Virus record (IMG/VR): IMGVR_UViG_3300024307_000003
Location: 29,687-93,686 of that record
DNA: 64,000 bases
Source of the DNA: a virus
Reading direction: 5' to 3' (one strand)
Shown: one piece after another, positions 1,378 to 30,227 of the stretch
Numbering within the stretch: position 1 is the stretch's first letter
Layout of the letters: each line of letters starts with the position of its first letter
Position numbers and translations under genes: made by a program
The notes under the pieces: generated by a model
Databases searched by the model: none
Seen by the model: only the letters and a program-made list of their open reading frames with translations
What the model was told of the DNA's origin: nothing

Positions 1378-4300
1378 TTAAATCTTCCCTGAGTCATACA
1401 GAGAAATTATTTTTGCGTCACTCAAGACAGATTCAAATGTTGCTGCTCGTTCAATAGTTCCAGAGAAAAGAACAGTGACATTTGGCACTATTAAGCTATC
1501 TGCTCCATAGAACACATGTTGTGCCCCTGTTGGAATATTCTCCGCCGAGGACCAAGAACCATCTGTTGTAGAAACAGTAGATACACACTCAACTCCATTT
1601 ATAAATAGCCGCAGAGTATTAACAGCATCAAGATCAACAATAGCGGTTATATGGTATGTCGTGTTCAAAGATAAAACATTATTTCCATAGTTTTCACTGA
1701 AACTTCCGCTTGTTCCTTCCGTTACTAGACTAAGAACCCCAGTGTTACTCATTGCTAGAGTTAACCCTGTACGCCCAGCAGAAATCCCATTACCGTTATC
1801 TGACAGTCCCATAATCGGAACAGGGAAAGTGCTAGGAGCAAATGCTGTTGGTCTCACCCAAACGCTGAATGTCCGCTGTCTTCCGTTTGTGGCTGTGAAG
1901 TTAGTTCTTGGTGAACTATTAAATCCACTTATCCCACCAATGCTCCCACGAGTAAGGTCAGTTCCAGAGAAGCTACCATTTCCGTTGTAAGACAACCTGA
2001 ATCCAGCAGTAAGAGATATATCACTCTGATAAGCATAGTCCTGCTCCAATTCAAATCTAATATAAGAACTTGGGGTGGATTCAAAAATATAATTGTCATG
2101 CAGTGTACGATTACCAGTGTTGAATAACAGTCTTGCATTGGCTTCAGATATTGTACTGTTGTAGGTACTTATCTTCTCGAAAGTTCCTGTATAGTTTCTT
2201 CCAACTTGAATACTGTCATAATCACTATTTCCGGGACTCAAAGATTGGAAATATCCTCCAAAGGTTTGTACAGCAGAAACTCTGCTAGCAATAGTTCCCG
2301 GCCAGTTTCCAGTGTATATCTGACACTTGTTAGTTGTGTTGATCTGGTTTGTATCCAAACTCACAGCAATGAAAGTATTCCATCCTGCTGCTAACACTCC
2401 ATTACCTGATGACCATTGAATATAAGCTCCGTTATCGTGGGTATTGTAGTTATAGAGTCTAAACAGAATAGCACCAGCACTGGTGATTCTCAGATCCCAA
2501 TACACCCAGTTTGTTGTACCATCAAAGTTGTACCCAGCCATTAAAGACGCGTCTGTTAATGTTGCCGGTAAAGATGTCCAGAAAGAGATTCCTAATTTAC
2601 CGGAGCCAACTACTGGAGCAACAGGTAACACATCTGTGGGATAAAGGAACACAACAGGTTCAATTCCATTTAGAGAATTAGCTCTTGCTGAGGTTGTTCT
2701 ACTGCCGTCTCGAATGGTTCCAGCTTGACCCACCAAAGCAACTGATCCATATGTTGCAAGATTTGCTAATGGGTTAACATACTCTCTAACATCTGCTGTG
2801 CTGTAATCATTCATCGGATAGAGTGTTTGAGGAATACGAGAAGCTTTCATAGCTTCTAGGTCATAAAGACCACCGGGGAAAATGTTCCCAGTTGTCACAC
2901 TATTTCCATTTAGGATAGTTGCGGACATTGGTTTAACTTTTCCAATTATCCCAGAGGTTGTGCTTATTCCAGATATGGTACTAGATAATCTCTTAGTTGC
3001 CGAGCCAGTTAATGCTCCAGTTCCTGTTATAGTAGCTACCAAGCGTTTTCTCATTGTCCCAGATAACGCACCACTACCTCCAATAGAGGAACTAACAAAA
3101 GTTCTCAGTCCAGATGCTGTGGTTGTGCTAGAGCCAACTATTGTAGCTGCCATCTGCTTCACTTTAGTGAAATTAGCTGTAATGCTCCCTAAACCACTAA
3201 TTGAAGATGAGCCATATTTAATCTTTCTCAGATTAGCACTTACTGTAGAAGTACCAGCGATAGTTGTGTTACTTCCTTTATTAATAGAAGCTACGACACT
3301 GTGGACACTTGCAATGTTAGCGCTAAACCGCTTGGTGATATTGGCCACTACGTTGGAAGTACCAACCATTACCAATCCAGAAGACTTGTTGATGCTTCCT
3401 GTAATGGCTCCATTTCCTGCTATAGTGGAAACCAATCGCTTGTTCAGAACACCGGAGGTTGTTGTGGTTCCTGTCAGAGTTGCAGACAAGGAGTATGCCG
3501 GGCCTGCGCTTACTAAACTTGTTCCAGCAATTGTAGCAACCATGTTCTTTGCTATAGCTGCTGTTACGTTGGAAGTTCCAGAAATAACTGTTCCGCCACC
3601 AAACGCTGGGGCTGCTGTTACATCCGCTGTTCCAGAAATTGTGCTGCTCATCTGTTTGGACACAGACGCTGTTACAACTCCAGCTCCTGTTATGGTGCTG
3701 GCTACTGGTTTATACACAGTAGCAGTTAATGCTCCGCTTGCTGAAATAGCAGCAGACATCACTGTAGACATATTGGCAGTAATAGCGCCAGAAGCTGTTA
3801 TCGTAGCAGATATGGCTTTAACACCATTACCCGCTGACAATGCGCCACTTCCTGTAATTGTAACGCTCTGGAATGTTCTGACAGCCGTTGCTGTAACAGA
3901 AGAAACTCCTGCTATAGGAGCGGAAACAAACGATATATCATCCTTGGTGAGGATAGCTGATATTCCAGAGGTACCTGCAATGAACGCCGCCATAGATTTG
4001 ATAGACGGAGTGACAGGCGGTAAATATTCTTCTTGCGGAGGAAGAGTGTACACAACTTCCTGTGATGGGGTGAGGGCTACACGTCCGCGCTCTGTTCCAC
4101 CAAGTGTTCTCACAACAAATTCTAAATCATATTGTCTGGAGTTTCTGTTGTATCTGGATTCAAAGAACACCAGCTCCAGCACTTCGGGGTTCAAGAGAAT
4201 TGTTCTTCGATACCAAGCATCCACTTCCAATTTGGTGATTCCGGGCTGTGCAATATAATCCCGGTTAATTCCACCAAACTGTGTGTTATTAAACCATTCC

Positions 4301-4428
4301 CCCTTAAAAGCTCTCAGCGTAACCTCAAGCTCTTGTCTGACACGTTTGTTCGTGTCTCTAACAAGGGACAACCCACCATTCTGGTAGGATAAATCCCCCG
4401 TAGTGGGGTCGATATATAAATCGAACAT
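1378..4428 (-). CDS. Baseplate gp25/DUF2634-like wedge protein fused to ~18-aa S/T/G repeats and two LamG/ConA-like domains
   Basis: N-terminal ~120 aa (GDL...VRQELEVTLRAFKGEWF...FGG) typical of the small protein between spike and baseplate J; about 20 repeats; C-terminal FSVWVRP...YHITAIVD...LRLFINGV...FSGTIE LamG signature. Confidence 0.75.
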   Translation of the reverse strand: MFDLYIDPTTGDLSYQNGGLSLVRDTNKRVRQELEVTLRAFKGEWFNNTQFGGINRDYIAQPGITKLEVDAWYRRTILLNPEVLELVFFESRYNRNSRQYDLEFVVRTLGGTERGRVALTPSQEVVYTLPPQEEYLPPVTPSIKSMAAFIAGTSGISAILTKDDISFVSAPIAGVSSVTATAVRTFQSVTITGSGALSAGNGVKAISATITASGAITANMSTVMSAAISASGALTATVYKPVASTITGAGVVTASVSKQMSSTISGTADVTAAPAFGGGTVISGTSNVTAAIAKNMVATIAGTSLVSAGPAYSLSATLTGTTTTSGVLNKRLVSTIAGNGAITGSINKSSGLVMVGTSNVVANITKRFSANIASVHSVVASINKGSNTTIAGTSTVSANLRKIKYGSSSISGLGSITANFTKVKQMAATIVGSSTTTASGLRTFVSSSIGGSGALSGTMRKRLVATITGTGALTGSATKRLSSTISGISTTSGIIGKVKPMSATILNGNSVTTGNIFPGGLYDLEAMKASRIPQTLYPMNDYSTADVREYVNPLANLATYGSVALVGQAGTIRDGSRTTSARANSLNGIEPVVFLYPTDVLPVAPVVGSGKLGISFWTSLPATLTDASLMAGYNFDGTTNWVYWDLRITSAGAILFRLYNYNTHDNGAYIQWSSGNGVLAAGWNTFIAVSLDTNQINTTNKCQIYTGNWPGTIASRVSAVQTFGGYFQSLSPGNSDYDSIQVGRNYTGTFEKISTYNSTISEANARLLFNTGNRTLHDNYIFESTPSSYIRFELEQDYAYQSDISLTAGFRLSYNGNGSFSGTDLTRGSIGGISGFNSSPRTNFTATNGRQRTFSVWVRPTAFAPSTFPVPIMGLSDNGNGISAGRTGLTLAMSNTGVLSLVTEGTSGSFSENYGNNVLSLNTTYHITAIVDLDAVNTLRLFINGVECVSTVSTTDGSWSSAENIPTGAQHVFYGADSLIVPNVTVLFSGTIERAATFESVLSDAKIISLYDSGKI

Positions 4429-4450: not shown

Positions 4451-5035
4451 TTACGGAATGGGAGTGCTTGTTGGGCTACCCGGAGAAGCTGAAGTGTGTT
4501 TATGTGTTTCAATCGGTAAACCATTCAGAATATAACTTCCTGTGTGTGTAATCGTTCCAACGATCTCAATATTCCCATCCAAGCCAAGAGCAATACGAGA
4601 AGCACCACTCTCAATAACAATCTTCCCCGGCTCTATAGGCTTCTCATCAGGGAGAGCGAAGATACAAGGGAGGGCAGCTATAGGGTGAAACTCATGTGTC
4701 TTCAGATCATCAGGGATAGAGACAGAAGCCCCATTCTGAAGCAGGCTACCGTAGTCCCTATCTGAGAACAACACCAGCACCATATCCCCTACACTCACAG
4801 GAACGGTTATACGGCTCGTTCCACCTCCCCCGCTATACACCATAAGGGGTACGTTAGAAATAGGCGGGAAGGGCTGGATATGGCCATCCTTGTACTTGGT
4901 TTGTGTCAGGATAGTGCCTGAGATTCTGTTCCCCACCACTTTAGTGACAACAGCCGGCTTGATCGTGTGAATGTGCCGCATGTAGTTCATTAGGAACTTG
5001 TTTAAAATATACACAGGATCATTTGTATTAGACAT
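4451..5035 (-). CDS. Baseplate central spike (Gp138/gpV-like)
   Basis: VPVSVGDMVLVLFSDRD OB-fold motif; C-terminal THKHT H-x-H metal-binding apex motif. Confidence 0.88.
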   Translation of the reverse strand: MSNTNDPVYILNKFLMNYMRHIHTIKPAVVTKVVGNRISGTILTQTKYKDGHIQPFPPISNVPLMVYSGGGGTSRITVPVSVGDMVLVLFSDRDYGSLLQNGASVSIPDDLKTHEFHPIAALPCIFALPDEKPIEPGKIVIESGASRIALGLDGNIEIVGTITHTGSYILNGLPIETHKHTSASPGSPTSTPIP

Positions 5036-5088: not shown

Positions 5089-6021
5089 TTACACATACAC
5101 GACTACTTCATCCGCTTCCATGTTCGTTACCCATTCCCCGCCTTCCAAGGTTCCAGAGTGAACCACTGAGGTCACTTTATACCCACCCTTGTAAAATCCA
5201 TCTGAGGATTCCACATACACGGTTTGATTAGGCATAATGGCTCCATTCAGGAGACACTTGATTCTAACGCTCTTCTTGGGGGACGTTTTGTCTTCTGGGT
5301 TGGTGCCCTCACTCTTGTTCAGAGGAGCAATCTCCAATAACCCGCTTTGAGCGGTTAGCTTGATGATTTCTTGTCTGGTGCCTTTATCTTTAGGCATCCA
5401 ACAGACAGCTCCCTCTTGCACACTGAAATCCGAGTTGGTTATCTTGGCTATTCTCCGGAGCTGTTCACAGCTACTCCCGGCAGCATAGAAGTCACTCTTC
5501 GTCACCATCTCTGGGACGTTCAGCAAGCCTCCAGCTTTAGGAAGGCCCATATCCCCTACGATGTCTTCTACAATCGTCTTGTAGGGCGTCCCAAGAGGGT
5601 AGGAGCGTACAGAAACAGTTTCCCGCATGTTGACACTACCATCCCCAAGAGAAAGCTCTAGAATGCTGTCAGGACTATTGAATGTATATGTGTAGCTTTC
5701 AACTGTTCCCTTGAATATCTCTTTGATTCCAGATTCATACCCAGCAGAGAGGATTGCCCCCAAGGGCTTACCATTCAAGTTTTCAAGATACCCGAGAATT
5801 TCCTTGGGCATGTTGTAGATTGTGATGGAACCACTATTGGGGGAATCTGTGACGCTCTTGCGGATATTGAATGAGATGTTGTGTTCTGTCAGGCGGTAGG
5901 CATTGGTGGGACTCTTGGAGTCTACTAACTTCCCAATATCCACCACTTCCGGTGTGACGTAGGTGCGCTTCACTTCAATCGGTTTACCAAAATCCAATTG
6001 ATACTTACGATTAAACAGCAT
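5089..6021 (-). CDS. Baseplate hub protein
   Basis: ISFNIRKS...NSGSITIYN...LSAGY...IFKG pattern; position before spike. Confidence 0.8.
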   Translation of the reverse strand: MLFNRKYQLDFGKPIEVKRTYVTPEVVDIGKLVDSKSPTNAYRLTEHNISFNIRKSVTDSPNSGSITIYNMPKEILGYLENLNGKPLGAILSAGYESGIKEIFKGTVESYTYTFNSPDSILELSLGDGSVNMRETVSVRSYPLGTPYKTIVEDIVGDMGLPKAGGLLNVPEMVTKSDFYAAGSSCEQLRRIAKITNSDFSVQEGAVCWMPKDKGTRQEIIKLTAQSGLLEIAPLNKSEGTNPEDKTSPKKSVRIKCLLNGAIMPNQTVYVESSDGFYKGGYKVTSVVHSGTLEGGEWVTNMEADEVVVYV

Positions 6022-6391
6022 CTCCTACACTCTCCGCCCAAGCGTTGATATCTTCATCTTCGCTAACAAAAATTAAAAAGAATCTACCATCCCGGAAAGT
6101 TCCTTCTTTAGAAGGTCTTCCCCATTGATCATCCATATCTATTACTTTTAGTAGTCCTTTAGGAACTTCATCATAAGCTTTATAAGGAACAAGAAGATCA
6201 ATACCATTCACAATCTTGAACTTCACTCTGGGGTCTTGCCCCAAGAGACCAACGTAGCAATACCAAGCATCTTCAAATGAGTTGTAACGATACCGGAAAG
6301 CATAATATTGATTTCCTATCTGAACACGTACACGTTGATCCTGATAGAGGTTGTTTGAATCAGGCCCACGCATTGGGAGGACAATCGGCAT
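6011..6391 (-). CDS. Small baseplate protein (plug-like)
   Basis: FRYRYNSFEDAWY motif; synteny between Dit-like and hub genes. Confidence 0.65.
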   Translation of the reverse strand: MPIVLPMRGPDSNNLYQDQRVRVQIGNQYYAFRYRYNSFEDAWYCYVGLLGQDPRVKFKIVNGIDLLVPYKAYDEVPKGLLKVIDMDDQWGRPSKEGTFRDGRFFLIFVSEDEDINAWAESVGDAV

Positions 6392-7011
6392 TAGTTGCTC
6401 TCCTGTGATTTCATGTTAGCTTCATATTGTGCATCAGCAGCTTCTTTGTCATTAAGGAGAGGAACTATTTGGGAATGGTTCTTACCATCATTGAGATCGG
6501 TTGGTTGTTCTGCTCCGTTGTCAGTTGTCCCTTTCCCACTTTCTCCTATTTTAGCAGAGTCAATAATTGTCACTGTTATAGATTGGCTCTCAGCTAAACG
6601 AATAACTTGGATGTCACAATTGAAGTTCAAGGCTTCCATAGACTGTGCTGTGAAATCTGTTGTGTAGGTTTGAAGAATACAATTAGTAAACAGATCAAAC
6701 TCAGTGACAACATCAAAAGGAGTTCTTGAGAACCAAAGTTCTTTCAACAAAGCATGAGCTTCGTCAGCCCTATTAATGTTGTTATAACCCACTTCATTAT
6801 TAGGGTACTCAAACACTGGATGATTGGAGACACTTCCTACAATACTGATCGTAGGATTCTCATTGAACACATGGTCACTAATATTGGAACGAGTGTCCAC
6901 AGGATAGGAGGTTATTTGATTGGTAAATGTCTCCTTAACACTCATCACTGCATCAGCAACAAATGATTTTCTGGAGTCATTTCCTCCTGCCATAAAAACT
7001 GTTATTGGCAT
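6391..7011 (-). CDS. Tail tube initiator / Dit-like baseplate protein
   Basis: ITSYPVD...ISDHVFNENP motif; follows tape measure gene. Confidence 0.75.
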   Translation of the reverse strand: MPITVFMAGGNDSRKSFVADAVMSVKETFTNQITSYPVDTRSNISDHVFNENPTISIVGSVSNHPVFEYPNNEVGYNNINRADEAHALLKELWFSRTPFDVVTEFDLFTNCILQTYTTDFTAQSMEALNFNCDIQVIRLAESQSITVTIIDSAKIGESGKGTTDNGAEQPTDLNDGKNHSQIVPLLNDKEAADAQYEANMKSQESN

Positions 7012-7015
7012 AATA

Positions 7016-8875
7016 TTATTCCGTTGTTGCTGTGTTAATGGCTGGCCAAGGATTACTCTGCTTTATTCTTGTTTTTAAATCTTCAGAGGGAGTAATCTGA
7101 ATACTGAGGTTATTTTTGATAGATTCAGCAATCGTAGACCCCATCTTTTCTATATAGCCAAGAATTGCTTGGTCTGAAATCGGGGAAGCAAGTCCCATAG
7201 CTCCAGAAACTTTAGAACCTAAGTTCCCACTAGCTATTCCCAAATAATCATGAATCTCCTTGCGAACATTTTCATCCCCAGCAAGGTAATAAAAGACATC
7301 ATGAAATAGAGCAGGAAGAAGTCTAGCATATGTAGTGACCATCGTAACTAACCAAGATATGGCACTACCAAAAGCATTAAGTAATGGACTAACCATCTTT
7401 AAGAAGAATCCAAGGTTGTCAAACAGGAGCATTAACCTTGGTTCCATTGATTTAAAGAAGGAGTTCATTGTGTCTGCCCACACCATTCCAAGCTTTGATT
7501 TCTTTTGCTCATAAGCAAAGAACTCACTATTCTTGAAATCTCCGGATCTTTCTCGCAATACTTTAGCTAACGCTTTAGCAAATTTCTCTGGAGTGAATTC
7601 TTTATTCTTTAATGCGGCATTAAACTCCGCTCCGTTCCCTTTATATCCTAATGCGTTTTGAAGCAACGCAGAGATACCCGGAATGTGTTCTGACATCTGA
7701 CCATATAATTCTTCAGAGGTAAGAGCACCCTTACCATACGTCTGCATTAAGGCGTGTAAAGTCAAAGCCAACTGTTCTGCTGATAAACCCATAGCCTTAG
7801 AAAAACCAAGCATAGCTGAGAAGAGTTCACGGGTTTCACCCATATTAAACCCACCGAGATCAGCAGATAATCCAATTTTTGTCCATGCTCTTGCTGTATC
7901 AAGAAGACTGGTTCCCAGCGCCTCAGATTCTTTACGAATGTATGCCAACTCTTTTGCAGAGTTTTTTCCAAAGGCTGTTTGCATCATCATATTCATCTGG
8001 TTAAACTTAACACCAGTTTGTTCAGCGCTCATTGCAAGAGAACCAAAACCCACAGCAGCAAGTCCAACCATTCCGGCTTTTACACTACGCAATCCAGCCA
8101 TCATTCCAGCAAAGCCTTGTTTCCCAGCTTTTCTCATCTGAAAGTCAAGGCTAGTTATGCTTTCTTTAAACTTGTTTACTGCGTGCGGGGCATCTCTATA
8201 TTCTCTAATAATCCCTTGCAGAGTTTCATGATGGCGTTTCCATAACCCAGAATCGCTCGAAATATTAAGTTCTCGTGTTGATCTTTCAAATGCTGCGCGA
8301 GCGCGAAAGATCTGCATGTCCTGTTTGCTCTTTGCTCTAGCAATAGCCGCAAGCTGGTTAACAGAACCTTTATTAATATCCTTAGTGTATTTAGGAGGAG
8401 GAACGTTCAGTTGCTTATGAAGGTCACGGGCTTCGCTCTTTATCTTCTTGAGCTGAACAGCAAACTCAGCAGAGATCATTTCTCCGCTCTTTAATCTTTC
8501 CCCATACTTAGCTACAGATTCTGTGAGACGATCCATGTCTGCTTTAGGAATCTTTAGGGTGCGGAAGGTGTTGTGCATACCAGCCTTAGCTGATTCCACC
8601 ATAGCCTCACGCTTACGCATGTTATAGGCAACCTTACCTATGGTGTTCCAATACCACCCTTCTCCTTGTCTTCCACCACCACTTCCTCTGCCCGTTCCTC
8701 CAGAGACAGCGGAGCTTACACGCCCACCAACAGAAATATTAGGAGAGCTTAGGCTCTCCAATTTCTTCTTGAGCTTGTCGATTTTCTTTTCAAACCGATC
8801 AATGTTCCGATAAGCAGATTGATTGATCCTAAAATCTGCTTCAGCGTAAACACTCGCTGCTCTTATTCCATCCAC
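7016..8875 (-). CDS. Tail tape measure protein
   Basis: Helical 619 aa; ALMQTYGKGALTSEELYGQMSEHIPG tape-measure motif; position after chaperones. Confidence 0.88.
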   Translation of the reverse strand: MDGIRAASVYAEADFRINQSAYRNIDRFEKKIDKLKKKLESLSSPNISVGGRVSSAVSGGTGRGSGGGRQGEGWYWNTIGKVAYNMRKREAMVESAKAGMHNTFRTLKIPKADMDRLTESVAKYGERLKSGEMISAEFAVQLKKIKSEARDLHKQLNVPPPKYTKDINKGSVNQLAAIARAKSKQDMQIFRARAAFERSTRELNISSDSGLWKRHHETLQGIIREYRDAPHAVNKFKESITSLDFQMRKAGKQGFAGMMAGLRSVKAGMVGLAAVGFGSLAMSAEQTGVKFNQMNMMMQTAFGKNSAKELAYIRKESEALGTSLLDTARAWTKIGLSADLGGFNMGETRELFSAMLGFSKAMGLSAEQLALTLHALMQTYGKGALTSEELYGQMSEHIPGISALLQNALGYKGNGAEFNAALKNKEFTPEKFAKALAKVLRERSGDFKNSEFFAYEQKKSKLGMVWADTMNSFFKSMEPRLMLLFDNLGFFLKMVSPLLNAFGSAISWLVTMVTTYARLLPALFHDVFYYLAGDENVRKEIHDYLGIASGNLGSKVSGAMGLASPISDQAILGYIEKMGSTIAESIKNNLSIQITPSEDLKTRIKQSNPWPAINTATTE

Positions 8876-8893: not shown

Positions 8894-9196
8894 TTATCTG
8901 TGAAGCTTGCTGGCTTGTTGTGCTTTCTCAATTTCTTCTTTGGCCTGTTCATGGTGTAACAATTCAACAGAATTTCTGATTCTCCGAAACTCATTTATCT
9001 TCGATAGAAGATCAAGATCAAGGTCCAGAAGGTTTACAGTTACATTACATTTTTCATCAAAGATGGGTTCAAGCCATAACATATCTTGCGCTGTTAGCGA
9101 TGACTCTTTGTCTATCCTTTCATACAGCGCGGCCTCCTTCCTACTTAGCTCTCGATTGGAGCTGCCGGGAGGAAGAAAGCCAATAAATCTTTTTTT
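8894..9196 (-). CDS. Tail assembly chaperone -1 frameshift extension (GT-like)
   Basis: -1 frame is open from A7 at 9190-9196 (RFIGFLPPGSSNRELSRKEAALYERIDKESSLTAQD) into the 8894..9082 ORF. Confidence 0.7.
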   Translation of the reverse strand, partial: KKRFIGFLPPGSSNRELSRKEAALYERIDKESSLTAQDMLWLEPIFDEKCNVTVNLLDLDLDLLSKINEFRRIRNSVELLHHEQAKEEIEKAQQASKLHR

Positions 9197-9585
9197 AGCA
9201 GTGTACCGTAATTCTGATTGATGATCTCAACACACAGTTGAAGAACACCAGTAAGCCCTACACCTTGTTCTGCCAAAATATCCAGCGTTGCTGGTTTCTT
9301 GGATGCGCCATTTTTGGGACGATACCAAACGCCGTCAATCAAACGATCTGCCAGTTTTTCTAAATCAATTCCAGCTAATGCCCCCATAATCCCTTCGATC
9401 ATGGCAATCACTTGCATTCCTTCTTCAAAGCTTCCTGACACTGCCAGAGCATTTACAAAAGGTTCTTTAATGAGAGGGATAACAATGTTGTTCTCACGGA
9501 GCTGACGACGCAAGTCCCACGAGTTGAGCGTAACTTCTAATTGTGTCCCATCTTCACACGGGACGTGAATAATTTTCTCTTGCAT
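9145..9585 (-). CDS. Tail assembly chaperone (G-like)
   Basis: Between tube and tape measure genes; slippery CTA AAA AAA GAT near its 3' end. Confidence 0.75.
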   Translation of the reverse strand: MQEKIIHVPCEDGTQLEVTLNSWDLRRQLRENNIVIPLIKEPFVNALAVSGSFEEGMQVIAMIEGIMGALAGIDLEKLADRLIDGVWYRPKNGASKKPATLDILAEQGVGLTGVLQLCVEIINQNYGTLLKKDLLAFFLPAAPIES

Positions 9586-9702: not shown

Positions 9703-10206
9703 TCAAGTTCCCGGAATTCCACCAGAGATTAAATCTGCTGTTTGCGCTGCTACGCTCAGAGCGCTGTTAGACGCAGTGATCAGAGCTACACCAAACAGGC
9801 TATACTCCCTAGCTTCTACGTTATTACTCCAAACCCGTTGAGGGTCTTTCTGAATCCAGCAGTTAGCTACAAACACGGTTTCAAAAGCCGCAGGATCGTA
9901 GATTTCCAGAGTCATCAGAGGAGGAACGGACAAGATGTTCCCTACAACTTTTAAATCTTCAAGCTTCTTAATGGAAGGAGAAGTTTGTTGCAAGCGAAGG
10001 GTGATAGTACAAGTGGCATCACGGTTAGCAGCTCGGCTAACTTCCCCACGAGTTCCAACATGATTATTGAAGAATTCTTGATTGCGTTCAACTGTGATCA
10101 TTTCCCCTTCAGGAAACCCCACCAACTCAACTTTTGCACCAAGTGCTTTCAATGTGATTATAACGTCATTAGGATCATAAGTCCCAAGTAATGCAGGTAT
10201 TGGCAT
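9703..10206 (-). CDS. Tail tube protein (DUF3277-like)
   Basis: TYDPNDVII...VGTRGEVSR...TITLRLQQTSPS motif; follows sheath. Confidence 0.85.
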   Translation of the reverse strand: MPIPALLGTYDPNDVIITLKALGAKVELVGFPEGEMITVERNQEFFNNHVGTRGEVSRAANRDATCTITLRLQQTSPSIKKLEDLKVVGNILSVPPLMTLEIYDPAAFETVFVANCWIQKDPQRVWSNNVEAREYSLFGVALITASNSALSVAAQTADLISGGIPGT

Positions 10207-10223: not shown

Positions 10224-11549
10224 TCACAATTTGACAAAACCGGAAATTTTGAAAGTATGCCAAACTGGATTAATCGTTGCTTCAAACGGAATATCCGGCA
10301 GGAAGCGATTAGCCTTGTTGTTTGTGCTGATGTCAGATGCTTTAGGTGGGAACACTTTGTAAGAAGCAAGCCACCCGTATTTAACAAACTCATCCAGCAC
10401 AACATTCATTTCACTGACAACTTCACGAATACCTTCATCTCCAGCCAGACGTTTCCCCAAGTCGGAAACACGTTTGATCAAACCAAACACGCCTTCCTGC
10501 ATACGGGCTTCAAGAGCCAGAGAACCGTGGATATTATCGAAGAACCTCCCGCTAGAAACCTTACCGTCTTCCATCCAACCCACACCGCCACGACGAACAT
10601 AAATATTCGCAGACTTACCTTTAGCAAAAGTAGCTTCAGTGGTGGAGATAGAATCAACAGCAACACCTATCAGGGTCTTGGCAAACAAGTCACCAGTTCC
10701 GGGGAAGGAAGTTGCGATAGTTCCAAGAGCAGCACCCTCGGCAAATTCTTTATCCGCACCTTTATACGCAACCAACATAACGTTGTCATATTGTGCAGCA
10801 TTCAGAATAGAGGCGATGTCAACAGTGGAGCTAGTGAAGATTGCGCTTTCCTGCGAAGACACAAAATAAATCTTCTTATTGGCAGCAGCATATTCTGCAA
10901 AGTCTTCAATGTCTGTTCCATCGTGGCTATCAGACAAAATGAAGAACCATTGATCATTCACATCCACAATTGCACTCAGAGCCTGAGTTGCAGTTTCACT
11001 CGAAGTGAAGGACAGAGTGATGTTGGAAGTGGAAGCTCCCAAGCTCACCTTACCAGTAGAAGCAGGGGCTACAATCAATGTAGAGGTACTATTGGTTGCA
11101 GTGACAAAAGAGTTGATATCTGTGTCAGCTTCAATCAAAGCAGCCAGCCCAGCAGCAATCTCTGTTCCTGTTGCATCAGCATCGGAAGTGTAAGTAAATG
11201 CTTTATCATAAGAAGCACTACCAGTGTTGACACTCAAGGTGATCGTGTAAGCAGTGGTGTTAGCAACGTCAAAGGTTGCTCTGTAATCAGTGAGCGCTCT
11301 GCGACCAATTACAACTTGATTCGGAGCTTTGATACCTGCAAAAATATCAGCTACCATTTTATAAACCGGGCTACCATCGGCAAAACCATCAGCCAGCAGA
11401 TCATCAGCATCCGTATAAATACGAACACGATCTGTCCACACATTATGTGCAGAAACAATCACTGGGATGTCAAACGATGCTACAGATATTGGTCGATCAC
11501 CAAGGGTGATAACGACATCTACAATATCTTCAATATCAAATGCCATCAA
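10224..11549 (-). CDS. Contractile tail sheath protein (DUF3383-like)
   Basis: IEDIVDVVITL...FDIP, KTLIGV, GKVSSGRFFDNIHG motifs. Confidence 0.88.
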   Translation of the reverse strand: MMAFDIEDIVDVVITLGDRPISVASFDIPVIVSAHNVWTDRVRIYTDADDLLADGFADGSPVYKMVADIFAGIKAPNQVVIGRRALTDYRATFDVANTTAYTITLSVNTGSASYDKAFTYTSDADATGTEIAAGLAALIEADTDINSFVTATNSTSTLIVAPASTGKVSLGASTSNITLSFTSSETATQALSAIVDVNDQWFFILSDSHDGTDIEDFAEYAAANKKIYFVSSQESAIFTSSTVDIASILNAAQYDNVMLVAYKGADKEFAEGAALGTIATSFPGTGDLFAKTLIGVAVDSISTTEATFAKGKSANIYVRRGGVGWMEDGKVSSGRFFDNIHGSLALEARMQEGVFGLIKRVSDLGKRLAGDEGIREVVSEMNVVLDEFVKYGWLASYKVFPPKASDISTNNKANRFLPDIPFEATINPVWHTFKISGFVKL

Positions 11550-13401: not shown

Positions 13402-13782
13402 TTAATCTTCAGTGATGGTGATCTGACCAATCGCGAAGGTACCACTCTCACCGTTGTTCAGGGTGATGTTGGAAGTCAGCGGGCCGTAGTACTTAACATT
13501 TCCACCTGAACCTGTTGCTGCTGAAACAATAAAAATATGCGTAGCTGTTGCCCATGCGCCTCCAGAGGCGGTAAAAGTTACAGCTCCTGTATTGGTAGCA
13601 GTACTCCCAGTTACTGTAAAACTTACAGACTGACGTGTGTAACCATTACCAGTAAGCTCCACAGCCGATATAGTGGTACCAGTGTGAGCATCTGTAGGGG
13701 TTGCACTGCACAGTCCAACCCAGTTGGAACCACCCAGTAAGTTGGTAAGGGCCGCATTTTCTGCGTAATCTGATTTTGGCAT
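13402..13782 (-). CDS. Small virion fibre subunit, paralog 1 (SDY.EN...GY.RQ.V.F family)
   Basis: Aligns end to end by eye with 14159..14566. Confidence 0.65.
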   Translation of the reverse strand: MPKSDYAENAALTNLLGGSNWVGLCSATPTDAHTGTTISAVELTGNGYTRQSVSFTVTGSTATNTGAVTFTASGGAWATATHIFIVSAATGSGGNVKYYGPLTSNITLNNGESGTFAIGQITITED

Positions 13783-14158: not shown

Positions 14159-14566
14159 TTACGCCACTTCCAGACGCAGTTCACCGATAGGAAACTGACG
14201 TACTTGACCAGAAAGAACAGTAACCGGAGAAGTTAATGCAAAGTGCATAATGACATTACCAGCACCATGTGTGGCACTATCAGTGATAAAAGCATGTGTT
14301 GCAGTTACCCAATCAGCCGATGCTGTAAAGTTTACTGCACCCGTATTTGCAATACGGTTGTTTGCACCTCCAGACGGGGCACCAAAAGTAACCGCTTGAC
14401 GAGCATAGCCGTTAGAGTTGGCCAGCTCGGGAATGGTTGCTCCTGTGTGAGCATCTGTTGTGGCAGACGAAGCCAAACCAACGTACACAGTTGTTGGGGC
14501 TGTAATGTTGGTGCCACGAATCCAATTAAGGATTGCGTTTTCCATATAATCTGAAAAAGCGGACAT
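14159..14566 (-). CDS. Small virion fibre subunit, paralog 2
   Basis: MSAFSDYMENAILNW...YVGL...GYARQAVTF...W.TATH.FI. Confidence 0.65.
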   Translation of the reverse strand: MSAFSDYMENAILNWIRGTNITAPTTVYVGLASSATTDAHTGATIPELANSNGYARQAVTFGAPSGGANNRIANTGAVNFTASADWVTATHAFITDSATHGAGNVIMHFALTSPVTVLSGQVRQFPIGELRLEVA

Positions 14567-14594: not shown

Positions 14595-15470
14595 CTAAAG
14601 AGCGTTCCTGTTAATTGAATGAACAAGACGAATTTTTTGTAATCTTTGGAGACGAAGCGATGGGGAACGAATTGTTCCTGAAGCAAATCCACTTCCTAAT
14701 AGCGATCCTGCTAAATCAGACCCAGTAGCCAAGAATGTGGAGTTAACCACTCCAGTTCCTGTTCCAGAAGCTGTCCCTGCAAGGTCAGCAGCTTGAGAAA
14801 GGATTGTGTTTCCTGTTCCAGTGGCTACCCCTTGGCTTTGTCCAGCAAAGCCCGTGTAGAGGCCCCCAGAGGCTATAGCTGTCCCTACGGAGTCCCCAGA
14901 GATATAATCAGGTTGGTCAATTCCCCCTTCTACTAACCCGCTTCCCAGAGCAGAAGCCCTGAAGGTCAGAAGAACTGTTCCTGTTGCGGTAGAGGATGCC
15001 ACTCCAGAGGCTCGTAGAGGCTCATAGAGACCTCCTGATACAAACCCGCTACCTAAGCCTTGGGCACTCCATATTTCGCTAAGGGAAGCTCCACCAGAGC
15101 CTGTGCCTACAGCATCAGCCTTGATGTCTTGGATTGTTGTAACAGAAGCAACGCTTCCAATTCCAACCCCTAGAACCTCTGCTCTAAATACATCATCGTC
15201 TATATTTCCATCAGCTACACCCGAGCCAAGGGCTACGGACTGTAGGGCTGGATAACTTGTGGCCTCTCCTGATCCAACTCCAGAAGCATCAGCTTCCAAG
15301 ACAGAATAGATTCCCCCAGAAGCTAACGCTTGTCCTACAGGGGCGGCAGTGAAGTATTGAACGAGGTTGGCAGTGGCAAATCCACTACCGAGAGCATCAG
15401 CTTCAAACGCGGGTAAGTAATCAAACCCACTATCTTCAGGTGTTAGAAAGCTGCGATCTAAGACAGCCAT
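14595..15470 (-). CDS. G/S/A-rich ~18-aa repeat virion protein
   Basis: About 12-13 repeats of [FL]-x-A-x-x-x-G-S-G-x-A-x-G-x-[IL]. Confidence 0.65.
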   Translation of the reverse strand: MAVLDRSFLTPEDSGFDYLPAFEADALGSGFATANLVQYFTAAPVGQALASGGIYSVLEADASGVGSGEATSYPALQSVALGSGVADGNIDDDVFRAEVLGVGIGSVASVTTIQDIKADAVGTGSGGASLSEIWSAQGLGSGFVSGGLYEPLRASGVASSTATGTVLLTFRASALGSGLVEGGIDQPDYISGDSVGTAIASGGLYTGFAGQSQGVATGTGNTILSQAADLAGTASGTGTGVVNSTFLATGSDLAGSLLGSGFASGTIRSPSLRLQRLQKIRLVHSINRNAL

Positions 15471-15893: not shown

Positions 15894-18257
15894 TTATAAT
15901 GTGTAGCTAAAACCGGAATAACTTCCGCTTCCGCTATCAGGAAACTCAACGTATACAGTTTCACCAGTAACACCCATCACATTGTTAGTTAATGTCCAGA
16001 TTCCCGAACCATTTGTATTAACTGTGGTACTAAGTGCTATAGTTCCATCTGCTCTACGAATACGTACAGGGATGTTAGATACGCTAGCTCTTATTTGTTT
16101 TGTAGAAGCGTCTCTCATCACTTGACTAGTGATTGTTACGTTTGCGGGGTTAACTGTCAAACCAACTGTGTTGGAATAGACAATACCACCTTCAGAGCTT
16201 GTCACTCGACAATAGAAAGATTTTCCATTATCTCCAAGAACTGTTGTTCTAGCATAAGTAGAAGAAGTTGCTCCTGACACTAATATATCAGTTGTACCAT
16301 TTTCTTCAAACCATTGATAAGCAGAAGCTCCTGTAGCAGACAGAACGAACGAGGCTACTTGACCTGCTGTTACGTTTTGAGCCGAAGGTTGAACAGTGAT
16401 AGTGGGTACGCTAGCTGCCCGTGTAGTTACGCTTACAGAGTCTGTTACTCCTCCCGAAGCTACGCCACCTGTTACAACAGCACCATAAGTACCAGAAGTC
16501 AGTTTCATATAAACTGTCTGACCAAGCTGTCTTACTACAGAACTTCCATATGTTCCGTTGCTTGCATCAGACACTGTAGCACTTCCTGTAGCAGCAAAAG
16601 TAACGTTTGTAGCTGCTGTAGTTCCTGCTACAACAAAAGAACGTATTGTGTCTGTATTAGGATTGGCTCCTGTTACATCAGCTCCAAGATCAAACTGTGT
16701 TGGAATAATGTCTGCTGGTGGATCATAATTTATAGTAGCAAAAGCTGAATGTGCTCCATCCGTCTGATCTACAACTGCAACACTCATCGTTCCATCAAAA
16801 GCGCCCGTGAAGGTTGGAATACCATTCGCAGCAATACTAATTGTGTTGGTTTCATTGTTGTAAACCAACTGATCCCCATTCGCTGCTGCTGGGGATGTCT
16901 CCACCTCTCCTGTAGTAGAAGCTGGATTGTAGCCAGATAAAGTTACATGACTATATCCTGTAGCAGGAGTCATTGATGTTGACCCAGAAGCACTTCCACT
17001 AGTAAGGGTTACAGTTGCACCATAAAGAGTGGCAGGCCAGTTAGAGGATGTTCTAGCTACAGCGGTTGTTGTAGAATTTACAGCAGTGTGTGCACCTTGT
17101 GCAACTCCGTTAATTGTAACTGCCGATAACGACCCCGGCGCTTCATCCCATGTAATCTGAAAACTAGTCTGGTCATAACGGATAGGATTTCCGCCATTGA
17201 TAGACAGGATTGAGTTACTAACTGCCAAAGTAGTTACGTTGACAGAAGCATATATTTTAGCTCCTAAACCCCCTACTTCTTGAGCACGAACCCAGTATCT
17301 TCGTTGTGTATTTGCCGGTAAATCTATAGTGGTGTCATAGAACACAGTAGCCGCCACACTAGTACCATCAGTTGGTGCAGCATCAAAGGTGGCATCCGAG
17401 GGTTGAGCTTGTGATATGTTGTCATAACCGATTATCTTAATAGTGGCAGCAAGGGATGTTGTGAGTGCCATCCTGAAACTACTAGCGGTTATCTGGTCCG
17501 CAGAAGGAGTAGCCAACCAAGACAATGTAGGTGTTGTCGATGGCATCGTATCGTCATCAGCTGCGATAGCAAGTAACACATCTTCAATAGTAGCTTCATC
17601 TAGGGCTGCTGTTTCCCACGCAGCACACTTAATCATTCCTTCGCCATTATCAAAAGCTGTCTGGCGATTACCTATAACTAATTGGGCTGTACCAGTAAGA
17701 CCACTTATGGTAGCGTTCTGTGGGAGAGTATAACCACCATAACCACCATCAGGTGTTATCGGCGTAAGCACACCACCCGACAACGTATAGAACTTTATTC
17801 GTTCCTGAATCGTTGCCTGAGTGGTGTCGATACGGACAGCAATAAGGGATTGGGAATTGTAAAAATTAAAACTATTACCAGCGAAATTAAAACCATGTAG
17901 ACCAAAAACACTACGCTCATACATTAAGGCCGGTGTACCACCATCTGGTCCAAGTATAAACATAGTGGACCAGTCGTCTACAGAATACCCAGCCCATTTA
18001 AGGAAGAATGTTCCTTGGTTTGTTCCATTAAGTTCCGTAGCTATTGTAGAACCAATTGCAGCCCAAGCCCTAGCGTCACTTGTTTCGCTTGCAGCGGTCC
18101 AATTTAAACCGCTACCCTCCCCATCAGCCGAGAAGGCCATTCCTCCCGGACCATAATCGAGCGTTAGAGGTAGAGAAGCAGTGCCTTGGTTGGCAGTAGT
18201 GGTTGGTGTAGTTCCGCTAGTAGCTTCGTCTAAACCGTAGAAAAATTTAAAACTCAT
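15894..18257 (-). CDS. Large multidomain appendage protein (LamG-like N-terminus, Ig-like domains)
   Basis: PTITVQPSAQNVTAGQVASF...YQWF...DNGKSFYCRVT is a clear Ig I-set-like motif; LVIGNR...GMIK fits ConA-like. Confidence 0.7.
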   Translation of the reverse strand: MSFKFFYGLDEATSGTTPTTTANQGTASLPLTLDYGPGGMAFSADGEGSGLNWTAASETSDARAWAAIGSTIATELNGTNQGTFFLKWAGYSVDDWSTMFILGPDGGTPALMYERSVFGLHGFNFAGNSFNFYNSQSLIAVRIDTTQATIQERIKFYTLSGGVLTPITPDGGYGGYTLPQNATISGLTGTAQLVIGNRQTAFDNGEGMIKCAAWETAALDEATIEDVLLAIAADDDTMPSTTPTLSWLATPSADQITASSFRMALTTSLAATIKIIGYDNISQAQPSDATFDAAPTDGTSVAATVFYDTTIDLPANTQRRYWVRAQEVGGLGAKIYASVNVTTLAVSNSILSINGGNPIRYDQTSFQITWDEAPGSLSAVTINGVAQGAHTAVNSTTTAVARTSSNWPATLYGATVTLTSGSASGSTSMTPATGYSHVTLSGYNPASTTGEVETSPAAANGDQLVYNNETNTISIAANGIPTFTGAFDGTMSVAVVDQTDGAHSAFATINYDPPADIIPTQFDLGADVTGANPNTDTIRSFVVAGTTAATNVTFAATGSATVSDASNGTYGSSVVRQLGQTVYMKLTSGTYGAVVTGGVASGGVTDSVSVTTRAASVPTITVQPSAQNVTAGQVASFVLSATGASAYQWFEENGTTDILVSGATSSTYARTTVLGDNGKSFYCRVTSSEGGIVYSNTVGLTVNPANVTITSQVMRDASTKQIRASVSNIPVRIRRADGTIALSTTVNTNGSGIWTLTNNVMGVTGETVYVEFPDSGSGSYSGFSYTL

Positions 18258-20905: not shown

Positions 20906-21931
20906 TTAGGTAATAGTAGCTTTTACAATCAACTGAGGCTTGGCACAGAAGTGTGCGAAGTTGGATTCAGTTTCAATGTCATAACCTTGACCACGGTCAT
21001 TCTCATAAACAAAAGCGTACATCGGAACACCAACGGTGTTGACATAGCTGTTGTGTGACATTGGAGCATAAATAGTCTTGAACAGACCACTTACCATCGG
21101 GATAATACGAGCTTCACCAGCAGGAATCAGTGGGGTGCCTTTCATCTGACCGCGATATTCGATGTGCAGAATACCAGCTTGATCAACGAAGGTACGATGG
21201 CCACGACCAACAGTCGGCAGACGATCCCGCAGGAAGTTACCGTTAGCGTTAGTAGCAGCAAACTGACTGTAAGCTTCTTTAACGTTAGTGTTGGTAGTCA
21301 GCTTAGCGAAGAACTCTGGAGAGTCCAGAGAAATAAAGTCAGTTACAATCATACCGTCTTGCAGGTTGTCTTGAATGTAAGCAATAACTTCTTCAGACTT
21401 AGCTTGAGGAACACCAGTACCACCAGTGTCGATATCATAATCTACAACTTTCTGAGTTACACCCAGATCAGTGAAATAGTTGGTAGATACAGTTCCGTTA
21501 GGAGCGTACACAGTACCGTCTTTAATCAGTTGCAGACGCGACCATTCGCGCAGTTGTGCCCAAGAGTTATTGATGCGCAGCAACTCTTCTGCTACTTTAG
21601 CGTCAAAGCTGGAGAACTCCTGATCAGTACCCGGAGCGCGCTGGCTTTGAACGTCTTCTGGCATAATGCGGCCATCAAACGGGAAGTGAGGAATAGAGAA
21701 AGAGAAGGTTTTTACAATCCCTTTATCTACGAACTGATCACGACGGCTTCCCCACATGCGATCTTCTGGCAGACTGAAACCAGACTCAATTTGATCGTAC
21801 TGGAAAGTACGGGTGCGAACACCAGTTTCTTCAAACAAACCCAACTGGTTAACAAGACCATACATATTCTCAATCTTGTTAACGTCCGGGGTACGGTCCT
21901 CAAGGAAATTTGTGTCTTTACGAACTGCCAT
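20906..21931 (-). CDS. Major capsid protein (lambda E-like HK97 fold)
   Basis: IPHFPFDGRIMPEDVQ, EWSRLQLIKDG, IETESNF...PQLIVK; strong codon bias. Confidence 0.92.
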   Translation of the reverse strand: MAVRKDTNFLEDRTPDVNKIENMYGLVNQLGLFEETGVRTRTFQYDQIESGFSLPEDRMWGSRRDQFVDKGIVKTFSFSIPHFPFDGRIMPEDVQSQRAPGTDQEFSSFDAKVAEELLRINNSWAQLREWSRLQLIKDGTVYAPNGTVSTNYFTDLGVTQKVVDYDIDTGGTGVPQAKSEEVIAYIQDNLQDGMIVTDFISLDSPEFFAKLTTNTNVKEAYSQFAATNANGNFLRDRLPTVGRGHRTFVDQAGILHIEYRGQMKGTPLIPAGEARIIPMVSGLFKTIYAPMSHNSYVNTVGVPMYAFVYENDRGQGYDIETESNFAHFCAKPQLIVKATIT

Positions 21932-29258: not shown

Positions 29259-30227
29259 TTAAATTCCTATACACATAACCGAATACTGGCCTTTAGCCTC
29301 TGCTTCGGAATAGAGGGTTATTGTGAAACCTGTTCCAGCAACAATGTCGCTTACAACAGGTCTGATATTCAGAAGATACATTTCGTCTGGATCAACTCCG
29401 GAGGGGGTTAGAACATTACAAACAACTTCGCTGCTAACACCTACCCAAGATTGTCCTGTTACTATTGTCTGCGCTTTGTCCGTAAAGGAACTACCAAAAT
29501 CACATACAACGTTTACACTACTACCACTTACACCAGCTGGACCAGTAGCGCCCGTAGCGCCTGTTGCACCAGTCTCTCCTTGTATCCCCTGAACGCCTTG
29601 AATGCCCTGAATACCTTGTATTCCCTGCGGACCCTGTAAAGAAGATAATGTTACGATGTTGGTCCACGAAACATCTCCGACATAACGCCACTGAATGTAT
29701 GTACCATTACTTTGAAGCTCTACTTCTCTACCATCAACTCCATTTGTACCTGCCGGACCTTGTATTCCTTGAGCACCAGAAGGCCCTTGAGGGCCAACTT
29801 CGCCTTGTATACCTTGGGGTCCGGTGTTACCCTGAATCCCTTGTGAACCTTGCGGTCCTACTTCTCCCTGTATTCCCTGTATTCCTTGTGGGCCTGTAAT
29901 CTCTGAAAGAAGAATTAAGTTTGTCCAGCTAACATCCCCAACATATCTCCACTGGACGTGTGTAGCAGACTTTTGTAATTCAACTTCCCTTCCATCTACT
30001 CCATCACTTCCGTCAACCCCTGCTGCGCCTGTATCTCCTGTTGGTCCAACCGAACCTGTGGGACCAGTGGCTCCAGTAGGGCCTATAGGCCCTCTTATAC
30101 CTTGTTGGATGGAGGAGACAACACCTCCAGCGTCAACTCCAAAGGAGAGTGTCCCACTATCCCCTTCCTCAAGAAACACTTTCGTGTCAATTGGAGACGA
30201 TTGGAGAATCTTTGTGACAATACTCAC
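29259..30227 (-). CDS. Collagen-like (Gly-X-Y) fibre protein
   Basis: Three Gly-X-Y blocks separated by two copies of DGREVELQ...QWRYVGDVSWTN. Confidence 0.9.
   Translation of the reverse strand: MSIVTKILQSSPIDTKVFLEEGDSGTLSFGVDAGGVVSSIQQGIRGPIGPTGATGPTGSVGPTGDTGAAGVDGSDGVDGREVELQKSATHVQWRYVGDVSWTNLILLSEITGPQGIQGIQGEVGPQGSQGIQGNTGPQGIQGEVGPQGPSGAQGIQGPAGTNGVDGREVELQSNGTYIQWRYVGDVSWTNIVTLSSLQGPQGIQGIQGIQGVQGIQGETGATGATGATGPAGVSGSSVNVVCDFGSSFTDKAQTIVTGQSWVGVSSEVVCNVLTPSGVDPDEMYLLNIRPVVSDIVAGTGFTITLYSEAEAKGQYSVMCIGI

Follow-up and report, generated by a model that had tools for sequence, protein, structure and literature searches.

What could a protein of 1016 amino acids (aa) be doing at the place in a contractile tail where a small sheath initiator is expected? 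This question is raised by a gene in a viral DNA stretch of 64,000 nucleotides (the window; positions 29,687 to 93,686 of IMG/VR virus record IMGVR_UViG_3300024307_000003), which belongs to a viral contig of 93.7 kb, estimated to be 69% complete. The gene is a single intact open reading frame (ORF) without an internal stop (1378..4428; stop codon at 1378–1380), located on the minus strand, as are all its parts given below. It lies in a contractile-tail module between the genes for the spike and for Baseplate J. In the encoded protein an N-terminal sheath initiator domain is fused to a predicted rod of 20 repeats, a putative tether and two LamG/ConA-like domains. The interpretation to which we give a somewhat better than even chance is that six monomeric adhesin arms are anchored on the phage's own sheath initiator.

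The N-terminal domain and the length of its relatives

The N-terminal domain was identified as a gp25-type sheath initiator, including its C-terminal arm motif (residues 1–133, 4030..4428). It matched PHROG 120 "baseplate wedge subunit" (6e-11) and PHROG 4233 (2e-18) and, over the whole domain, P7-1 gp87 (9zd7_K, E 8.4e-12) and phi92 gp139 (21vq_L, E 3.7e-9); entries 9cuy_n and 9mjn_d6, both named "Sheath initiator protein", followed with E ~5e-9, and Pam3 gp21 (7yfz_X) gave a weak match. Alignments to the solved initiators span residues 2–133, and Q32, R39, F41 and E44-W45-F46 are invariant in an alignment with 10 relatives. Homology to the initiators of PB1-, KPP10- and phi92-like myophages (P7-1 gp87 9zd7/9zd8, phi92 gp139 21vq, 9cuy, 9mjn, Pam3 gp21 7yfz) over residues 1–133 is thus established at the sequence level, and the genes of these proteins occupy the same position between spike and Baseplate J. 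An earlier note on this DNA, made from the letters alone, had suggested a resemblance to the gp25/DUF2634-type baseplate protein, which these matches and the gene position bear out; its proviso that the N-terminus might lack baseplate homology does not apply, the values against solved baseplate proteins being 8.4e-12 to 5e-9.

The names of these proteins are in conflict: in the P7-1 atlas the gp25-type gp87 is called "adaptor-2" and the Dit-like gp83 "sheath initiator" (PMC13338283), whereas the homologues of gp87 in phi92 and Pa193 are named sheath initiators (PMC13450770, PMC11456595). In phi92, six initiator copies are located atop the wedge and join the first sheath ring in a handshake of four strands; their C-terminal arm touches the wedge, rearranges on contraction and relays the contraction signal (PMC13450770). 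P7-1 gp87 is likewise present in six copies, which have no mutual contact and "do not form an oligomer"; the protein moves with the wedge ring on contraction, and its hairpin is inserted into the first sheath layer (PMC13338283).

The Pro-rich linker that had been noticed after the N-terminal domain is present at residues 121–141. Its first part holds the motif T-P-S-x-E-V-x-Y, which by alignment is the conserved C-terminal arm (residues ~120–133) common to extended homologues and shared by phi92-like initiators. A short Pro-containing connector follows (residues 134–145, 3994..4029). No slippery site, which might permit a short isoform, was seen by eye at the domain junction.

How unusual the length is was assessed with relatives of the anchor domain, 38 from a metagenome scan and 2 from an IMG/VR scan; in 2 of the 40 the ORF is cut by a contig end. 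Most of the usable relatives (28 of 38) have 116–131 aa, and the minimal forms stop near the position that corresponds to residue 118–120 of the fusion. Longer forms comprise 136–151 aa (2 proteins), 167–168 aa (5), 211 aa (2, phi92-like) and 226–273 aa (3); these have the arm motif T-P-S/G-x-E-V/I-x-Y-P, beyond which their sequences differ from one another. The arm-bearing subfamily thus tolerates additions already, the 1016-aa protein being the extreme of a length series. In 11 of 12 long metagenome loci hub, spike, initiator and Baseplate J follow each other in this order; in the distant locus L008 the order is ambiguous. The earlier statement that this component is normally a stand-alone protein of 110–140 aa therefore holds for the majority but not for the extended forms of 167–168, 211, 226–273 and 441 aa. 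The comparison of length with orthologues, which had been proposed as a check, places the 1016-aa protein well outside the small stand-alone size of ~115–210 aa, although its N-terminal domain taken by itself conforms to the type. Solved gp25-type initiators have 123–211 aa, and the fusion carries ~880 residues more, in the form of rod, tether and two LamG domains.

The form of 441 aa is gp122 of Rheinheimera phage Barba5S, annotated as hypothetical, whose initiator domain is 36% identical to that of the fusion. As in the fusion, the arm motif and a Pro-rich linker are present, and additional beta-rich domains follow, an indication that the gene tolerates C-terminal additions. In contrast to the fusion, its extension of ~310 aa gave weak immunoglobulin (Ig)-like signals and contains neither 18-aa repeats nor LamG domains; the similarity between the two proteins ends at residue ~148.

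One further relative is a special case. On contig JABAHS010128503.1 (L039:5817-8354, plus strand), an ORF of 845 aa lies directly before Baseplate J. It encodes a right-handed beta-helix (Pfam Beta_helix, 4e-9), a linker rich in Ser and Thr and a sheath-initiator domain, to whose N-terminus the other two parts are fused in frame; the junction contains no start codon. The polarity of this fusion is opposite to that of the 1016-aa protein, on the same baseplate protein. The closest syntenic marine relatives, which possess a 168-aa initiator, have a protein of 955–995 aa after Baseplate J (L009:10003-12870, L011:10020-12905, L012:9998-12985), versus 229 aa in the phage described here, so that a large extension there sits on a different baseplate component. 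These second-wedge proteins were considered as kin of the arm and rejected, as no sequence similarity was found.

Rod, tether and LamG domains in a small family

Six metagenome proteins from separate assemblies (P0002–P0007; 710–967 aa) share the full architecture with 33–51% identity, and a fragment of 557 aa was 94% identical to the C-terminal part of the fusion. Neither among proteins of <558 aa nor among those of 558–1778 aa searched was a split two-gene form detected. These data bear on the possibility that the gene of an initiator of ~130 aa and a fibre gene downstream of it were separate and became joined through a chimeric assembly or the loss of a stop; the earlier note had named such an error after residue ~130 as a ground for refutation. 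That the ancestor had two genes is plausible, since Barba phages have an extra gene between the initiator homologue and Baseplate J. But six divergent homologues have the continuous architecture, with a junction that is 58–75% identical, and the content of guanine plus cytosine is uniform along the entire gene; because of these homologues and the 94% identical fragment an assembly artefact is excluded as the source of the fusion, and this explanation, largely refuted, is hardly credible any more.

Identity to the fusion among the homologues decreases from the anchor (64–83%) and connector (58–75%) through the rod (38–54%) to the tether (16–27%), the first LamG domain (13–29%) and the second (21–36%). 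Two of the six homologues have a single LamG domain, so that the number of tips in the family is 1–2, and five members lack four to five repeats, which gives a repeat number of ~16–20. This gradient from a conserved anchor to variable tips is, as far as sequences can tell, the signature of a phage adhesin or host-interaction protein, and the fusion of an initiator with an arm would appear to be rare, not unique.

The rod (residues 146–518, 2875..3993) consists of 20 repeats of 18–22 aa, 13 of them with exactly 18 aa and the others with 19, 20 or 22 aa. The identity at lag 18 was 0.255 (z = 13.5); among 2000 shuffles, with all lags considered, it never exceeded 0.182. The consensus is hydrophobic-S-A-T-I-x-G-T-G-x-V/L-T-A-x-I-x-K-x; positions 1, 3, 5 and 11, 13, 15 are hydrophobic or small, positions 7–9 are G-x-G, and Lys occupies position 17 in 9 of 12 exact copies. 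About 20 repeats of period 18 with this consensus had already been noticed; only the mention of some copies of 21 aa proved incorrect. With Tandem Repeats Finder no tandem repeat was detected at the DNA level, and the repeat copies are therefore old. The rod is strongly basic (25 K+R versus 3 D+E; isoelectric point (pI) 11.4), and it is basic in 7 of 7 family members (pI 9.6–11.4), while all other segments have pI values of 4.7–6.1.

An AlphaFold2 (AF2) model of the rod, calculated from the 7-sequence family alignment, reached a predicted local distance difference test (pLDDT) score of 80–88 and showed a two-faced beta-solenoid. In a VIA search against representatives the best structural matches were beta-solenoids with 18–19 residues per turn, namely Pontibacter curli CsgA (8c50_A, Z 25.4), the tailspike helix of cyanophage Pam1 (Z 20.3) and the antifreeze helix MpAFP (3p4g_A, 19 residues per turn; Z 18.9, root mean square deviation 3.0 Å over 248 residues). 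Like CsgA and MpAFP RIV, the rod is predicted to form one strand-arc-strand turn per 18–19 residues, with a Gly-x-Gly arc. This is a likeness in predicted fold only: no Pfam match placed the rod sequence in a curlin or other beta-solenoid family, and the rod of the fusion differs in being capped at both ends by other domains. The amyloid growth, calcium binding and ice binding of CsgA and MpAFP are not implied by such a resemblance. The repeat module was absent from the shorter proteins outside the family that were searched, a search among proteins of similar length yielded the same family only, and a look-up of the repeat region in the ESM Atlas gave unnamed clusters only, with scores at chance level.

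With 20 turns at ~4.8 Å per turn, the rod would be ~10 nm long, and it is predicted to be a monomeric beta-solenoid rather than a classical trimeric fibre. Arms could perhaps also oligomerise, three neighbouring chains forming, for example, a trimeric beta fibre, with two or three fibres per baseplate. Most phage fibres are trimeric, and the alternating hydrophobic pattern of the repeat with its Gly turn would also suit shafts of the beta-spiral type. However, there should be one copy per wedge, the P7-1 copies make no contact with each other (PMC13338283), the monomer modelled by AF2 is a confident, self-contained solenoid, and only ~12 residues connect the docked arm to the first repeat; oligomeric arms are thus regarded as quite improbable. 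Beyond the N-terminal domain, no Pfam or PHROG match to a fibre family was obtained, nor one to a trimerisation or chaperone domain.

A segment of ~90 aa, absent from the earlier note, separates the rod from the first LamG domain and is presumably a flexible tether (residues 519–608, 2605..2874), judging from a pLDDT of <35 in both models and its low conservation. The two LamG/ConA-like domains, by contrast already recognised there, were recovered by different routes. The second one (residues 844–1016, 1381..1899) was found directly: when residues 800–1016 were scanned alone, Laminin_G_3 (PF13385) matched with E 1.1e-10 and 42.3 bits versus a cut-off of 27.6, and the remote sequence matches among 1.84 billion representatives all carry Laminin_G_3. 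A full-length hmmscan of the fusion found no Pfam family, even at E 0.1; in view of the 42-bit match of the isolated part, the repeat-rich region evidently trips the filters, and in phage proteins that contain repeats each domain should be scanned separately. The first domain (residues 609–786, 2071..2604; AF2 pLDDT ~66–87) was assigned indirectly, by way of a homologue and by its modelled fold: residues ~609–775 aligned in BLASTP (E 5e-10) to the part of P0003 which Pfam calls Laminin_G_3 (2.4e-13). An inter-domain segment (residues 787–843, 1900..2070) has low confidence in the C-terminal model.

This model, comprising residues 517–1016, contains two beta-sandwich domains with block pLDDT values mostly of 60–90. 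The VIA matches of the second domain included domain 4 of AbnA, an arabinan-binding module (Z 15.8), and CBM40 (Z 15.2), and in general were carbohydrate-binding modules, pentraxins and other ConA-like domains (Z 14–16). In the fold model the LG pairs of laminin LG4-5, neurexin and Gas6 align over both tip domains. In the viral structure library BFVD, hundreds of structural or adhesin proteins of phages with tandem LamG domains matched, with E values down to 5e-16, among them LamG-bearing proteins named "central tail hub" and "putative adhesin". A tblastn search with residues 517–1016 against 50,697 phage records gave zero matches. From the fold class alone we infer that the tips bind glycans.

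The conserved basicity of the rod beside acidic other domains, together with the fact that LamG domains often bind proteins, would also be compatible with an arm that is directed at its own virion. The rod could then run along an acidic sheath or baseplate, with the LamG domains gripping fibres of the same virion or adjacent wedges, which would stabilise the extended state or hold the fibres retracted; extra baseplate contacts are known to tune stability in P7-1 (PMC13338283). Against this, the tips are the least conserved parts (13–36%), and close homologues differ in how many LamG domains they possess; such variation is unexpected for a partner in the same conserved virion. A self-directed arm is therefore considered rather unlikely.

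The tail module and further appendage candidates

Pfam and PHROG scans of the tail module revealed, all on the minus strand, the sheath (10224-11549), tube (9703-10206), tail assembly chaperone (9145-9585), tape measure (7016-8875), a Dit-like protein (6391-7011), a plug of the Pam3-gp18 type (6011-6391) and the hub (5089-6021). The upstream neighbour of the fusion gene is the central spike (4451-5035), with a phi92-type spike N-terminal domain (PF18352, 3.7e-8), and the downstream neighbour is a Baseplate J-like wedge protein (2-1369; PF04865, PHROG 6), which extends beyond the start of the window; its remaining part was seen in the adjoining region, L003. There, Baseplate J is followed by a DUF2612-type wedge protein of 229 aa, a protein of 197 aa and one of 201 aa with a T4 Gp10_C domain. 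The order Dit-like protein, plug, hub, spike, fusion, Baseplate J, DUF2612 wedge is the same as that of P7-1 gp83–gp89. None of the 50,697 phage records contains a protein that exceeds 35% identity to the sheath protein, and megablast with the first 12 kb gave zero matches; by sequence comparison, no closely related cultured phage was found.

The 201-aa protein (L003:17667-18272, minus strand; contig ~27666-28271), with its T4 Gp10 C-terminal domain (1.7e-17), is encoded by the sole recognisable fibre gene of the tail module and is preceded by the 197-aa protein (PHROG 2725/8270). Fibres of 197 and 201 aa are unusually small for a myophage of >90 kb. The fusion could therefore be a main host-binding protein and not an extra set of fibres. 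A stronger version would make the arm the primary receptor-binding and trigger element, in which the LamG tips pull on the initiator and help to fire the tail. In addition to the very small canonical fibre genes after the wedge genes, the fusion being the largest protein of the tail module and the signal-relaying conformational change of the phi92 initiator arm (PMC13450770) would agree with this notion. But an unstructured tether of ~90 aa transmits force poorly, most relatives fire without any arm, and the main receptor binders could be the 787-aa and Gp80-like proteins encoded near the capsid gene. A role as primary trigger is accordingly thought unlikely, if worth keeping in mind.

The genes of the proteins just mentioned, all on the minus strand, belong to a cassette with the major capsid gene (20906-21931) on one side and the neck genes on the other. 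Two paralogues (13402-13782 and 14159-14566) resemble "fiber I" Gp80 of podophage GP4 (PF23140, 2e-19 and 4e-30), and the 787-aa protein (15894-18257) possesses a region of PHROG 3995 "tail protein"; all three are, by their sequence families, candidates for further appendages of the same phage. At 14595-15470 (minus strand), an acidic Gly/Ser/Ala-rich protein of 291 aa with loose A-x-A-L-G-S-G-like repeats and without family match is encoded. It carries the opposite charge to the basic rod; an interaction of the two would be pure speculation.

A putative arm at the junction of sheath and baseplate

The fusion would appear to be the only sheath initiator of this phage, as PHROG-based searches detected no second initiator gene in the 93.7-kb contig. 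If assembled like its solved relatives, it would be present in six copies atop the wedge ring, each contacting the first sheath disc. Each chain would continue past the wedge-contacting C-terminal arm into the rod, the tether and the two LamG/ConA jelly-rolls. Given the location of the initiator and the continuing chain, the arms should emerge at the junction of sheath and baseplate. A stiff, positively charged monomeric rod of ~10 nm could serve as spacer and the tether of ~90 residues as leash, so that the arms could reach past the rim of the baseplate. The fast-evolving LamG tips would most likely bind surface polysaccharide of the host, and the phage may thereby attach reversibly, or be oriented, before its baseplate is committed. 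Of the earlier proposal that a wedge protein had been recruited as the anchor for glycan-binding fibres, the identity of the initiator, the position of the gene and the adhesin-like gradient stand; the fibre-type stalk gives way to a predicted monomeric solenoid.

Several points weigh against this arrangement. Zero direct matches to PF10934 (Sheath_initiator/DUF2634) and PF04965 (GPW_gp25) were obtained with the contig and with the isolated N-terminal domain, although PF10934 is the precomputed database label on all six full-length homologues. The confidence of AF2 was low for the anchor domain itself. With ~69% of the genome in the contig, a second, stand-alone initiator could lie elsewhere. 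The rod model was derived from a shallow alignment and folded as a monomer, which leaves room for an oligomeric fibre. The LamG fold also mediates contacts between proteins, so that tips need not bind sugars, and both the sugar binding and the occurrence of the long form in virions have been deduced from sequence and fold.

Conserved tail proteins with added modules are well known: "evolved" Dit and Tal occur in siphophages of Gram-positive bacteria, and tube, sheath and hub proteins carry Ig-like or LamG additions. The principle is the same here, a conserved structural scaffold bearing fast-evolving glycan-binding modules; the differences are that the scaffold is the sheath initiator and the spacer a long repeat solenoid. 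In the literature searched, which was not exhaustive, neither of these two features was encountered, and no published sheath initiator with a long extension was found. Together, the 845-aa beta-helix fusion and the 1016-aa protein suggest a recurrent, unrecognised use of the sheath initiator as a point of attachment.

A further-reaching proposal, of low probability, is that glycan capture by the LamG domains acts directly on the C-terminal arm of the initiator, which is the first element to rearrange when the tail fires, so that the arm would feed a mechanical or allosteric signal into the contraction switch. Host recognition would then be wired into the sheath starter, bypassing fibres and wedges, and with the beta-helix fusion this would represent a recurrent, undescribed design of contractile tails. 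The protein also lends itself to the question of whether the contraction switch can receive signals at the initiator itself. The rod, as a compact, capped and basic beta-solenoid restricted to a small family, should be of structural interest in itself.

In contractile injection systems of every kind the sheath initiator is regarded as a small core component that does not vary. Should virions incorporate the arm, myophage tails would have a new site at which host-range determinants can be attached. Predictions of receptor-binding proteins should then include such genes, which are now labelled "baseplate wedge" or "hypothetical", and the initiator may become a possible site for engineering of phage tails and tailocins.

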